Shown here: piece by piece, positions 7,705 to 14,028 of the stretch
Numbering within the stretch: position 1 is the first letter of the stretch
How the letters are laid out: the number at the start of each line of letters is the position of its first letter
Assembly (NCBI RefSeq): GCF_054482595.1
Contig: NZ_CM137008.1
DNA: 64,000 nucleotides
Direction: 5' to 3' (one strand)
Translations under genes and position numbers: made by a program
The notes under the pieces: model-generated
Databases searched by the model: none
The model's input: only the letters and a program-made list of their open reading frames with translations
What the model was told of the DNA's origin: nothing

Positions 7705-8601
7705 ATGGACATTTTTATTTCGAAAAAGATGCGCAATTTCATTTTATTAGCGCAAACCAATAATATTGCCCGGGCGGCAGAAAAAATCCATATGACGGCT
7801 TCGCCATTTGGTAAAAGCATTGCCGCGCTGGAAGAACAAATTGGCTATACGCTATTTACCCGCAAAGATAATAATATCAGCCTCAATAAAGCCGGACAGG
7901 AACTGTATCAAAAACTGTTCCCGGTTTATCAACGGCTTTCTGCGATTGATAATGAAATCCATAACTCAGGGCGTCGTTCACGAGAAATTGTGATTGGCAT
8001 AGATAATACTTATCCGACAATTATTTTCGATCAGTTGATTAGTCTCGGAGATAAGTATGAAGGCGTGACCGCCCAGCCAGTTGAGTTCAGCGAAAACGGC
8101 GTTATCGATAATCTTTTTGACCGCCAGTTAGATTTTATTATCTCCCCACAGCATGTATCTGCACGAGTTCAGGAACTGGAAAACCTGACTATCAGTGAAC
8201 TACCACCGCTGCGATTGGGCTTTCTCGTTTCTCGCCGTTATGAAGAGCGTCAAGAGCAAGAGCTGCTTCAGGAGCTGCCCTGGCTACAAATGCGCTTTCA
8301 AAACCGGGCTAACTTCGAAGCAATGATTGATGCTAATATGCGACCTTGTGGGATCAATCCAACCATTATTTATCGTCCCTACAGTTTTATGGCCAAAATC
8401 AGCGCCGTGGAGCGCGGACATTTTCTGACGGTGATCCCGCATTTTGCCTGGCGACTGGTGAATCCGGCAACGCTGAAATATTTTGATGCGCCGCACAGGC
8501 CGATGTATATGCAGGAATATCTTTATTCAATCAGAAATCATCGTTATACCGCCACGATGCTTCAGCATATTGCTGAAGATCGTGACGGGACAAACCATTA
8601 A
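7705..8601 (+). CDS. ygfI: LysR-family transcriptional regulator YgfI
   Basis: ORF track 298 aa, N-terminal HTH (NNIARAAEKIHMTASPFGKSIAALEEQIG); convergent with scpC as in E. coli. Confidence 0.85.
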   Translation: MDIFISKKMRNFILLAQTNNIARAAEKIHMTASPFGKSIAALEEQIGYTLFTRKDNNISLNKAGQELYQKLFPVYQRLSAIDNEIHNSGRRSREIVIGIDNTYPTIIFDQLISLGDKYEGVTAQPVEFSENGVIDNLFDRQLDFIISPQHVSARVQELENLTISELPPLRLGFLVSRRYEERQEQELLQELPWLQMRFQNRANFEAMIDANMRPCGINPTIIYRPYSFMAKISAVERGHFLTVIPHFAWRLVNPATLKYFDAPHRPMYMQEYLYSIRNHRYTATMLQHIAEDRDGTNH

Positions 8602-10076
8602 CCCAGCATCGAGCCGGTTGCAATTAAATTACGGTGTAAGTCGAAGACGTGGCTAAGATCGTGGTGAATATGTCCGCCAGGCGCATTTTCCAGATAGCGA
8701 TGCAGATAATCCCGATACATAGGATGTGCACAATTATCAATGATCGTGCGGGCGCGTTGAAGCGGGGAAAGACCGCGCAGATCGGCGATCCCTTGTTCGG
8801 TGATGATCACTTTGACGCTGTGTTCGCTGTGATCAACATGGCTGCACATTGGCACGACGGTTGAGATCTTGCCTTCTTTAGCAATCGATGGGGCCATAAA
8901 GATCGACAGATACGCGTTGCGTTCAAAATCACCGCTGCCGCCGATGCCGTTCATCAGATCGACCCCGGCTACGTGCGTTGAGTTGGCATGCCCGTAAATA
9001 TCAAACTCCAGGCCGACGTTCAGAGCGATGACGCCCAGACGACGGATGATTTCCGGGTTATTGGAAATCTCCTGCGGACGCAACACAATGCGGCTGGCAA
9101 AGTAATCCATATTGTCGTAAATCTTGCGCAGGGAATCGGCCGAGATTGTCAGGCTGGAGGCGCTGGCCCCGCTGATTTTGCCGGTTTCCAGTAAATGCAC
9201 CACCGATTCCTGTAGCACTTCCGAATACATCATAAACGGAGGAATTTCCGGGTTTTCCCCCAGACGCGCCATTACCGCATTATTGATATTGCCCACGCCA
9301 CTTTGCAGCGGCAGAAATTCCGGCGGAATACGCCCATGCGCCATTTCCTGCAATAAGAACGTGACCACGTTATCGGCAATCTGCTGGCACATGGGATTTT
9401 GCTTATCCAGCATATTACCGGCGTCGGGCAAGTTGGTTTCCACGACGGCGACAATCTTTTTCGGATCGATTTGCACATAGCGGGTACCGACGCGATCCAT
9501 TGCATGGAAGATCGACACGCTATTACGCCGCGGTGGCGCGCCAGGAATCACAATATCTGCCAGTTCTGCAACGCGCGGATCGTGATAGTGATTAAGTTCA
9601 ATGATCACTTTCTTCGCCCGCAGCAGCCATGTCGGCGCATTACCGATCCCGCTGGTTAACCAGACTCGACCATCCGGTGCCAGTGCCGATGCTTCAATGA
9701 CGGCAACATCAATGTCGCCGAAGAAACCGTAATTGACCATTTGCGCCACTTCGCTCAAATGCAGGTCAACGAAACTCACCGCGCCCTGATTGATCTTTTT
9801 ACGTAAACCGGACGATGTTTGATATGGCGCACGCCAGGAAACAGCATCAGCGTCAGAAAGTACATCGTCAGCGGCGGCGCTGATTGACGCACCCGTCAGC
9901 AGGCGAATTTGATACGGCTTTTTGGCCTCATGCTGTTCGTTAGCTCTGCGGGCAATCGCGGTGGGTAGGGCTTTCGGTGAACCCGCTGGGGTAAAGCCGC
10001 TAAATGCCACCATGTCGTTATGCTGGATAATTTCTGCCGCTTCATCGGCGGTCATCCTTGTCCACTGAGTTTCCAT
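8598..10076 (-). CDS. scpC: propionyl-CoA:succinate CoA transferase
   Basis: ORF track 492 aa, METQWTRMTADEAAEIIQHNDMVAFSGF; last gene of sbm operon. Confidence 0.92.
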   Translation of the reverse strand: METQWTRMTADEAAEIIQHNDMVAFSGFTPAGSPKALPTAIARRANEQHEAKKPYQIRLLTGASISAAADDVLSDADAVSWRAPYQTSSGLRKKINQGAVSFVDLHLSEVAQMVNYGFFGDIDVAVIEASALAPDGRVWLTSGIGNAPTWLLRAKKVIIELNHYHDPRVAELADIVIPGAPPRRNSVSIFHAMDRVGTRYVQIDPKKIVAVVETNLPDAGNMLDKQNPMCQQIADNVVTFLLQEMAHGRIPPEFLPLQSGVGNINNAVMARLGENPEIPPFMMYSEVLQESVVHLLETGKISGASASSLTISADSLRKIYDNMDYFASRIVLRPQEISNNPEIIRRLGVIALNVGLEFDIYGHANSTHVAGVDLMNGIGGSGDFERNAYLSIFMAPSIAKEGKISTVVPMCSHVDHSEHSVKVIITEQGIADLRGLSPLQRARTIIDNCAHPMYRDYLHRYLENAPGGHIHHDLSHVFDLHRNLIATGSMLG

Positions 10077-11891: not shown

Positions 11892-14028
11892 GATGCTGGC
11901 TTATCAGATTCAGTACGTCGCGCACACTGTCGAGCATAGGTGTACCTGGACCATAAATCGCCGCCACGCCGCGCTCTTGCAGGAAGGCGTAATCCTGCGG
12001 TGGAATGACGCCACCGGCGACTACGCAGATATCTTCGCGTCCCCATTTTTTCAGCGCTTCGACCAGTTCCGGGATCAGCGTTTTATGACCGGCAGCCAGT
12101 GAGGATGCGCCCACTACGTGAACGTCATTTTCTACTGCCAGGCGGGCGATCTCTTCAGGTGTAGAGAACATCGGGCTTAAATCTACGTCGAAACCGAGAT
12201 CGGAATAGGCGCTGGCGATCACTTTCGCGCCGCGATCGTGCCCATCCTGGCCCATTTTGGCGATCAGAATGCGCGGGCGACGACCATTGTCGACAAGGAA
12301 CTGCTCCGTTTGCGCAACAATGGCATCGAACTCGGAGGCCGATTTCTCAGATTGATGATAGCTTTGCGCAATCACGCCGGTAACACACTGGCTTGGCACC
12401 AGATAACGGTCGAAAGCGGCTTCCAGCGCATCGGAAATTTCACCCAGGGTGGCGCGAACGCGAGCGGCATTAACAGCGGCAGCCAGCAGGTTTTCGTTAT
12501 GCTGGGCGGCGTGAGTCAGGGCGTTCAACGCGGCGGTTACGGCGGCATTATCACGGGTGGCGCGAATGCGTTCCAGCGAAGCAATTTGCTCGTTACGCAC
12601 CATCACGTTGTCGATCTCAAGTACATCGGTTTCGTCTTCGTGATCCAGTTTGTACTTGTTGACACCAACGATGACACGTTTGCCCTGGTCGATAAGCGAC
12701 TGTTCGCGCGCTGAGGCCTCTTCGATCATTCGTTTTGGCAGACCTGCTTCGATCGCTTTCGCCATGCCACCGGCTTCGTCGATCTGTTGGATAATAGCTC
12801 TGGCTTGTTTGACGATTTGATCGGTCAGCGACTCAACGTAATAGGATCCGGCCAGCGGATCGACGGTGCGGCAGAGTTCTGATTCTTCCTGGATGATGAT
12901 CTGGGTGTTGCGGGCAATGCGTGCTGAGAAATCGGTAGGCAAACCAAGCGCTTCGTCAAAGGCGTTGGTATGCAGTGACTGAGTACCACCCAGCGTCGCA
13001 GCCAGTGCTTCAATGGTGGTGCGGATAACGTTGTTATACGGATCCTGTTCAGTCAGGCTCCAGCCTGAGGTCTGGCAGTGGGTACGCAGCGCCAGTGATT
13101 TCGGGTCCTGTGCGCCAAATCCACTGACCGCTTCGCTCCATAAATAACGTGCCGCACGCAACATGGCGACGTTCATAAACAGATCCATGCCGATGCCGAA
13201 GAAGAACGACAGGCGAGGAGCGAAGTCATCAATTTTCAGTCCGGCAGAGATTGCTGCTTTGATGTACTCAATCCCATCAGCGAGCGTAAATGCTACCTGC
13301 TGCACGCAGTTGGCACCCGCTTCACCCATGTGGTAACCGCTGATACTGATGGTATTAAATCGCGGCATGTTGCCGGAACACCAGGCGATGATGTCGGCGA
13401 TAATGCGCATTGACGGTTTTGGCGGGTAAATATAGGTGTTGCGGCAGAGGTACTCTTTGAGGATATCGTTCTGAATGGTGCCGGTCAGTTTATCAGGTGT
13501 AACACCTTGCTCTTCCGCGGCGACGATATAAAACGCCAGTACTGGTAGCACTGCGCCATTCATGGTCATCGAAACCGACATTTTATCCAGCGGGATCTGG
13601 TCGAACAGGACTTTCATATCTTCCACGGTGTCGATAGCGACGCCCGCTTTGCCGACGTCGCCCGCCACGCGCGGGTTATCGGAGTCGTAGCCTCGGTGGG
13701 TGGCAAGGTCAAACGCAACGGAAAGACCTTTTTGCCCGGCGGCCAGGTTACGGCGATAAAAAGCGTTGGACTCTTTTGCTGTTGAAAAACCAGCATACTG
13801 ACGGATGGTCCACGGTTGGGCGGTATACATAGTGGCACGCGGGCCACGAACGTAGGGCGGCAAACCAGGAAGGGTACCTGTCACCTCCAGATTATCGAGA
13901 TCGGCTTCGGTATACAGCGGCTTGATGGCGATCTCTTCCGCGGTTTGCTGAACCAGCGAGTCGACAGTTTTCTCCCGACGGCTCAATTCCTTGTTGGCAA
14001 GCTGTTGCCACTCCTGCACGTTAGACAT
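11884..14028 (-). CDS. scpA: methylmalonyl-CoA mutase (B12-dependent)
   Basis: ORF 11884..14049 trimmed to [15 protein letters not shown] giving 714 aa; overlaps argK start by 8 nt. Confidence 0.93.

Follow-up and report, generated by a model that had tools for sequence, protein, structure and literature searches.

The scpA-meaB-scpB-scpC operon of an Escherichia coli chromosome: an ordinary, intact sbm operon at its standard site

The sbm pathway of E. coli has been described as a silent, B12-dependent route from succinate to propionate (PMC3850637, PMC5512728). Its four genes are present near a strain-variable segment in the chromosome considered here, and the question is whether they are maintained for a reason particular to this strain, are a relic, or are simply what most E. 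coli carry. The window, meaning the whole 64,000-nt stretch of DNA analysed, almost certainly contains at 8598-14028 the E. coli chromosomal operon scpA(sbm)-meaB(argK/ygfD)-scpB(ygfG)-scpC(ygfH) at the standard argP/srsR site, and K-12-like behaviour is expected of it. The features of the locus are:

7705..8601, plus strand: srsR (ygfI), LysR-type regulator, convergent with scpC (NCBIfam NF047842, 635 bits)
8598..10076, minus strand: scpC (ygfH), propionyl-CoA:succinate CoA-transferase, 492 aa
10100..10885, minus strand: scpB (ygfG), biotin-independent methylmalonyl-CoA decarboxylase of the crotonase fold, 261 aa
10896..11891, minus strand: meaB (argK/ygfD), G3E-family GTPase chaperone of the mutase, 331 aa
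11884..14028, minus strand: scpA (sbm), adenosylcobalamin (AdoCbl)-dependent methylmalonyl-CoA mutase, 714 aa, ATG...TAA
14029..14231, minus strand: argP-scpA intergenic region (operon promoter/leader), 203 nt
14232..15125, minus strand: argP (iciA), LysR-type regulator outside the operon, annotated in E. coli XH990 (100% identical) and positioned as in K-12
15179-18294: strain-variable argP-rpiA segment, 3.1 kb, with genes for a LysR regulator, an azoreductase, a DUF1471 protein and a ferric-reductase-like protein

On the minus strand the order is mutase, GTPase, decarboxylase and CoA-transferase, with argP and srsR as the flanking genes. The first-pass annotation had reported four intact genes, and this was confirmed by the ORF listing and by direct translation of the window: all four frames are uninterrupted, no internal stops were found in them, and the products of 714, 331, 261 and 492 aa have the K-12 lengths. 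The span it gave, 8598-14028, runs exactly from the scpC stop to the scpA start. The mechanical ORF of scpA reaches a TTG at 14049; translation is annotated to begin at the conserved ATG at 14028. At the other end, the stop codons of srsR and scpC overlap in the palindrome TTAA (8598-8601), as they do in K-12.

The three junctions were reproduced at the spacings first reported. scpA and meaB overlap by 8 nt (ATGATTAA), the meaB start codon lying within the final 8 nt of scpA; meaB and scpB are separated by 10 nt (AGGAATTTTT), and scpB and scpC by 23 nt with a strong Shine-Dalgarno sequence, AAGGAG. The description 'overlapping gene junctions' is thus right for scpA/meaB, while the other two of the three are gaps. 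Such tight junctions, with Shine-Dalgarno sequences at the two gaps, suggest that the genes are carried on one transcript and may be translationally coupled.

Each of the four proteins exceeds the curated cut-off of an NCBIfam equivalog or subfamily model, and the ORFs are thus real genes rather than chance ORFs. The Pfam domains agree with the NCBIfam assignments, and these two sources, together with the way identical and K-12 records are annotated, bear out the gene identities and order proposed at first pass. ScpA scores 1250.8 bits against NF006944 (cut-off 876) and matches both the MM_CoA_mutase catalytic barrel (PF01642) and a C-terminal B12-binding domain (PF02310). Its DxHxxG cobalamin-ligand motif is DGHDRG, at residue 595; this base-off/His-on motif of AdoCbl-dependent mutases is common to ScpA and the Propionibacterium, Methylobacterium and human mitochondrial systems. 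Alignments with human MUT (2XIJ, 8GJU) and Propionibacterium shermanii MutB (1REQ) span nearly the full length. ScpA is of the single-subunit type, like the human enzyme, and the operon contains no small-subunit gene.

MeaB scores 494.7 bits against NF006958 (cut-off 329), and in the PDB it matches E. coli YgfD (2P67) best. It has a Walker A motif, GTPGAGKS, at residue 61, a 10-residue motif at 150 and NKDD at 200; the P-loop, switch/Walker B and NKxD motifs of the MeaB/MMAA proteins are therefore all present, and the gene is adjacent to that of its mutase. The protein aligns with Methylobacterium extorquens MeaB (2QM7) and human MMAA (2WWW), and the pairing of a mutase with a G3E GTPase is common to those systems and that of Propionibacterium. 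ScpB scores 487.2 bits against NF008506 (cut-off 257), matches PDB 1EF8 (residues 1-261) and 6N92 over its full length, and is 100% identical to K-12 ScpB, the crystallised enzyme of 1EF8. It carries His66, Gly110 and Tyr140. We take the active-site residues to include His66 and Tyr140, the choice of residues following Benning et al. 2000. ScpC scores 754.5 bits against the YgfH subfamily model TIGR03458 (cut-off 658.7) and contains the N- and C-terminal AcetylCoA_hydro domains (PF02550, PF13336). No sequence evidence runs counter to the identification of the operon.

That the proteins have these enzyme activities and depend on AdoCbl is inferred from their being 99-100% identical to the characterised enzymes of K-12, whose chemistry has been worked out (Haller et al. 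2000; summaries in PMC5512728 and PMC3850637). ScpC would move CoA from propionyl-CoA onto succinate, which yields succinyl-CoA and releases propionate; using adenosylcobalamin, ScpA would convert succinyl-CoA to methylmalonyl-CoA, with the MeaB GTPase aiding cofactor loading and protecting the mutase; and ScpB would decarboxylate methylmalonyl-CoA to propionyl-CoA, closing the cycle. The predicted net reaction is succinate to propionate plus CO2. Whereas other mutase/MeaB systems couple to a transcarboxylase or an epimerase, the E. coli operon couples to a crotonase-fold decarboxylase and a CoA-transferase, and an epimerase gene is absent from it (window genes; PMC5512728). According to one study, the pathway would be stereochemically incomplete without methylmalonyl-CoA epimerase (PMC5512728). 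Published opinion is split on whether the three enzymes suffice for the cycle, with the in vitro coupling of Haller and the engineering papers on one side and the epimerase requirement (PMC5512728) on the other.

How does this copy of the operon compare with those of other E. coli? K-12 MG1655 b2917-b2920, the 'sleeping beauty mutase' operon, has the same order, strand, flanks, gene lengths, three junctions and 203-nt upstream region, and a search of the gene lengths, junctions and upstream region gave no structural difference from K-12. Gene lengths and junction spacing in K-12 MG1655 and in five other diverse E. coli are identical to those of the window. Over the four genes the window differs from K-12 at 65 nt (98.3-99.1% identity; 98.8% for scpA against b2917). 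This amounts to 11 amino-acid changes, six in ScpA, three in MeaB and two in ScpC, none of them in the motifs checked. For six of the 11 substitutions, the residue in the window is the one found in most or all of the other five strains (in all five for both ScpC positions), and therefore it is K-12 that has the minority allele there. Private to the window allele among the seven strains are G32E, D494N and A579V in ScpA and E81D and A116T in MeaB.

The 5.9-kb operon region is 100% identical to that of 13 complete E. coli genomes, in which the genes are annotated scpA, meaB, scpB and scpC, and over its full 64 kb the window matches E. coli XH990 at 99.99% identity. Since the operon is likewise intact in K-12 and in some four-fifths of sequenced E. 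coli, it is the ordinary, already known sbm operon and is not distinctive of this strain. The first-pass annotation had considered its integrity noteworthy here; this does not hold, as K-12 is intact with the same architecture and so, at the level of coverage, are ∼79% of complete genomes. The label scpA-meaB-scpB-scpC suffices as annotation. What is rare here is not the operon but the 3.1-kb argP-rpiA segment beside it, which 232 of 5426 genomes carry.

The proximity of that segment raises the possibility that it activates or re-regulates the operon in this strain, which we consider highly improbable. In addition to being rare, the segment does carry a full-length LysR-type regulator ∼3.5 kb upstream of scpA. 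However, argP and its terminator-like hairpin (14198-14218, inside the argP-scpA intergenic region) lie between scpA and the segment. K-12 does not have the segment, yet its sequence upstream of scpA is the same. The extra LysR gene forms a divergent pair with the azoreductase gene, probably its more likely target. Over the 203 nt upstream of scpA there is no difference from K-12 MG1655 or from an O111 strain, and four other strains show 2-5 SNPs; given the identity to K-12, there is no sequence reason for different expression. The suggestion made at first pass that the operon might be expressed in this strain is thus without sequence support: besides the K-12 upstream region, argP stands between the operon and the variable segment, and the cob locus of XH990 retains only cobUST. 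For SrsR, encoded on the other flank, documented control of the operon was sought in the paper describing this regulator, which makes no mention of scpA, scpC, sbm, argK or methylmalonyl. The operon of this strain would, as in K-12, be barely transcribed from its weak native promoter.

That promoter is reported to be weak or inactive (PMC3850637). In a consensus scan, which cannot prove absence, nothing resembling a sigma-70 promoter was found ahead of scpA on the strand of the operon, and the missing consensus-like site is in line with that report. Terminator-like hits inside the operon genes numbered 14, against a shuffled expectation of 7.7 ± 3.4, or ∼2 standard deviations above it. The whole window was scanned at Rfam gathering thresholds, and no riboswitch or sRNA, such as a cobalamin riboswitch, was found at 7600-14400. 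Elsewhere in the window, Rfam matches were obtained for 6S RNA, two SIB RNAs and ES036.

The pathway had been called cryptic at first pass because B12 is not made. The literature does treat it as silent, but B12 is one of several reasons, alongside the promoter and the epimerase. Cyanocobalamin at 0.2 µM was needed (PMC3850637), and the missing methylmalonyl-CoA epimerase is given as a further reason for silence (PMC5512728). De novo B12 genes, which would have lent the intact operon more interest, were sought at the canonical cob locus of XH990, the genome used as proxy for the source strain, and were not found there; this locus contains a cbi pseudogene remnant and cobUST only, as described for K-12. 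Because E. coli lacks de novo B12 synthesis, the operon would depend on scavenged corrinoid.

If the pathway is silent, the operon might be a decaying relic, its frames open by chance and its genes of no further use to the cell. The reported silence in laboratory strains (PMC3850637) fits this reading, and so does the pattern of loss, which indicates that some lineages can do without the operon. Of 5426 complete E. coli genomes, 4274 (∼79%) cover at least 80% of the operon region; the remaining ∼21%, IHE3034 and ATCC 25922 among them, carry an internal deletion of ∼4.3 kb. In these two strains the deletion allele occupies the same chromosomal site, between the same flanking genes, as the operon of the window, but lacks the equivalent of window ∼8752-13009, so that a 5' scpA fragment is joined to the final ∼150 nt of scpC, and the two remnants bear pseudogene annotations. 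The allele in the window is the full-length one, which is in the majority.

The full-length allele itself, however, does not behave as decaying sequence. Across seven diverse strains the mean pairwise dN/dS of the four genes is 0.008-0.059, with dS of 0.05-0.075, where neutral decay predicts a dN/dS near 1 and scattered frameshifts. The frames are uninterrupted and the architecture identical in all seven strains, and the catalytic and cofactor motifs are intact. With dN/dS at 0.01-0.06, the four operon genes are under purifying selection and not decaying. The pseudogene or relic explanation was rejected on the dN/dS values, and we regard it as having very little chance of being correct.

Strong purifying selection implies some natural condition of use and fits poorly with the label 'never used'. 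One proposal is that the natural role lies in handling methylmalonyl-CoA or propionyl-CoA from amino-acid or odd-chain catabolism with scavenged corrinoids, for example in the gut, and not in net succinate fermentation. Expression of the operon raised amino-acid degradation to propionate and permitted isoleucine degradation, whereas glucose-to-propionate conversion required an added epimerase (PMC5512728). The purifying selection, which implies real use, and the cobUST salvage genes in the proxy genome XH990 are also consistent with a catabolic role. Against this, the proposal refines the physiological role of an operon of the same identity and concerns E. coli as a whole, not the window in particular; we consider it rather unlikely.

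A related idea, which we offer tentatively, is that the operon is not 'asleep' in wild E. coli and is conditionally used on gut corrinoids, either via an unrecognised epimerase or via direct action of ScpB on the mutase product. Such use would explain dN/dS values this low. Taken as a known E. coli operon, the locus is of general interest on two counts, the strong purifying selection that acts on a supposedly cryptic operon and the clear presence/deletion polymorphism, ∼79% versus ∼21% of complete genomes. Both agree with what has been published, and they characterise the species, not this window. If the operon is indeed conditionally used, its clean loss in roughly one-fifth of the sequenced genomes would point to a difference in niche, a species-wide point that would make nothing special of this window.

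The ORF listing for window positions 6500-16500 gave four long minus-strand frames (11884-14049, 10896-11891, 10100-10927 and 8598-10076). With starts taken at the conserved annotated ATG codons (14028 for scpA and 10885 for scpB), each of the four genes has an uninterrupted frame that begins with ATG and closes with TAA, and all four proteins passed the curated NCBIfam cut-offs for these exact functions.

Genes of the scp operon, with NCBIfam scores and comparison with E. coli K-12
11884-14028, minus strand: scpA (sbm), 714 aa, methylmalonyl-CoA mutase (NF006944, 1250.8 bits against a cut-off of 876); 98.8% nucleotide identity, 6 amino acid changes
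10896-11891, minus strand: meaB (argK, ygfD), 331 aa, MeaB (NF006958, 494.7 bits against 329); 98.3%, 3 changes
10100-10885, minus strand: scpB (ygfG), 261 aa, methylmalonyl-CoA decarboxylase (NF008506, 487.2 bits against 257); 98.9%, 0 changes
8598-10076, minus strand: scpC (ygfH), 492 aa, YgfH-subfamily succinate CoA-transferase (TIGR03458, 754.5 bits against 658.7); 99.1%, 2 changes

The Pfam domains are consistent with these assignments. ScpA can be aligned along almost its whole length with the human and Propionibacterium mutases and retains the cobalamin ligand motif DGHDRG. The top structural match of MeaB is E. coli YgfD (2P67), and MeaB has the Walker motif and NKDD intact. For ScpB, the E. 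coli crystal structures 1EF8 and 6N92 match the entire protein, and His66, Gly110 and Tyr140 are all kept.

The first-pass annotation had reported four intact genes with overlapping junctions, listed as an 8-nt overlap and gaps of 10 and 23 nt. The intact frames are borne out and the sizes are exact; only scpA and meaB truly overlap, having 8 nt in common (ATGATTAA). The meaB/scpB spacer is 10 nt (AGGAATTTTT), and the 23-nt scpB/scpC spacer contains a Shine-Dalgarno sequence, AAGGAG. Such tight junctions suggest that the genes may be expressed from one transcript with translational coupling. At the distal end, srsR/ygfI (7705-8601, plus strand) is convergent with scpC, as in K-12, and the palindrome TTAA at 8598-8601 supplies the TAA stop of both genes, so that the ORFs share 4 nt. 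This leaves no intergenic room in which a terminator could lie, and a read-through transcript of either gene would run antisense to its partner. The annotation of E. coli O157:H7 Z563 (5900-6301 of comparison locus L007) lists srsR/ygfI as a pseudogene interrupted by a stop codon, next to an intact scp operon.

The same four genes, with identical lengths and junction spacing, are K-12 MG1655 b2917-b2920, and the architecture is shared by all members of a phylogenetically spread set of seven strains (the window, K-12, O157:H7, O111 and three others with 97.9-98.4% nucleotide identity). At 6 of the 11 amino acid positions that differ from K-12, including both in ScpC, the window residue is the one found in the majority, or in all, of the other five strains. 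The remaining five substitutions are private to the window within this set (ScpA G32E, D494N and A579V; MeaB E81D and A116T), and none lies inside a checked motif. Of 5426 complete E. coli genomes searched by megablast with window 8400-14300, 5425 gave a match, and in 13 the match spans all 5901 nt at 100% identity. Two of these, XH990 and O157:H16 Santai, are annotated with scpA, meaB, scpB and scpC, and the XH990 chromosome is 99.99% identical to the entire 64-kb window, with 3 mismatches. The window, with the gene order yggC, fbaA, mscS, scp operon, argP, rpiA, serA, ssrS, gcv genes, recJ, lysS and yqeB, is ordinary core E. coli chromosome. The observation of a complete operon is confirmed, and the operon here is already known and unremarkable.

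Elsewhere in the window, Rfam RF00113 showed the SIB antitoxin RNA/ibsC type I toxin module to be present twice in tandem (20903-21053 and 21295-21445, minus strand; 138 and 135 bits), with ∼91% identity between the two copies. In K-12, this site holds one sibC/ibsC. The fbaA-mscS spacer contains a match to the ES036 (CssrF) sRNA (4798-4840, minus strand; 42.5 bits, gathering score 37.6); this spacer differs between strains, since the alignment to E. coli IHE3034 is interrupted between window 4769 and 4904.

The pathway scheme is well established for the K-12 enzymes (summaries in PMC5512728 and PMC3850637), and from their near-identity to these enzymes we infer the roles of the window proteins. 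Succinate would receive CoA from propionyl-CoA through ScpC, ScpA, using adenosylcobalamin and helped by the MeaB GTPase, would convert succinyl-CoA to methylmalonyl-CoA, and ScpB would decarboxylate this to propionyl-CoA, for a predicted net conversion of succinate to propionate and CO2. The first-pass interpretation of the pathway as cryptic is supported, with caveats. The cause it gave agrees with the literature, as E. coli does not make coenzyme B12 and activity needs at least ∼0.2 uM added cyanocobalamin (PMC3850637); a weak or inactive operon-promoter system (PMC3850637) and a missing epimerase went unmentioned. Gonzalez-Garcia et al. found an epimerase, absent from the operon, to be required for propionate from glucose, because the mutase product is the (R)-enantiomer and the decarboxylase is held to take the (S)-form (PMC5512728).

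Nothing about the operon is special in the source strain. Every base of the 203-nt argP-scpA intergenic region is the same as in K-12, a consensus scan of its operon strand found no sigma-70-like promoter, and an Rfam scan found no riboswitch or sRNA inside or beside the operon. In XH990, a proxy for the source strain, the cob locus (11676-14347 of comparison locus L011) has a truncated 'cobalamin biosynthesis protein' (cbi) pseudogene beside IS fragments, followed by cobU-cobS-cobT; no de novo corrin pathway genes were found at this locus and, since cobU-cobS-cobT serve corrinoid salvage only, it shows no de novo corrin synthesis.

The rare feature is the segment between argP and rpiA (∼15179-18294; 3.1 kb, low GC of 0.41-0.44), termed a strain-variable island in the first pass and present at ≥80% coverage in only 232 of the 5426 genomes:

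15196-16521, minus strand: ferric-reductase-like membrane protein
16584-16844, minus strand: DUF1471 protein
16861-17490, minus strand: FMN-dependent NADH-azoreductase
17591-18487, plus strand: full-length LysR regulator

In K-12 the LysR gene survives only as the yqfE pseudogene, a sign that the long form is probably ancestral and deleted in most lineages. We see no reason to link this segment to operon expression, because argP and a terminator-like hairpin (14198-14218) stand between it and scpA, and K-12 lacks the segment yet has identical sequence upstream of scpA.

At least 80% of region 8400-14300 is covered in 4274 of the 5426 genomes (79%); nearly all others, including IHE3034 and ATCC 25922, show ∼26% coverage. 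IHE3034 (NC_017628.1, comparison locus L003) lacks the equivalent of window ∼8752-13009, a ∼4.26-kb deletion in which meaB and scpB are lost completely, together with two-thirds of scpA from its 3' end and the greater part of scpC. What remains is a 5' scpA fragment joined to the final ∼150 nt of scpC, and the annotation marks each of these as a pseudogene. This deletion is carried by ∼21% of complete E. coli genomes, these two strains included, and an independent paper reports ATCC 25922 to be without the operon (PMC12750587). Across the compared strains that retain the operon, pairwise dN/dS averaged 0.044 for scpA, 0.059 for meaB, 0.008 for scpB and 0.044 for scpC, with dS of ∼0.05-0.075. 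The genes are under strong purifying selection, and these values (0.008-0.059) therefore argue strongly against a decaying relic where the operon is retained. Some natural use of the operon is implied; such use, like the purifying selection, belongs to the species E. coli and not to this window.
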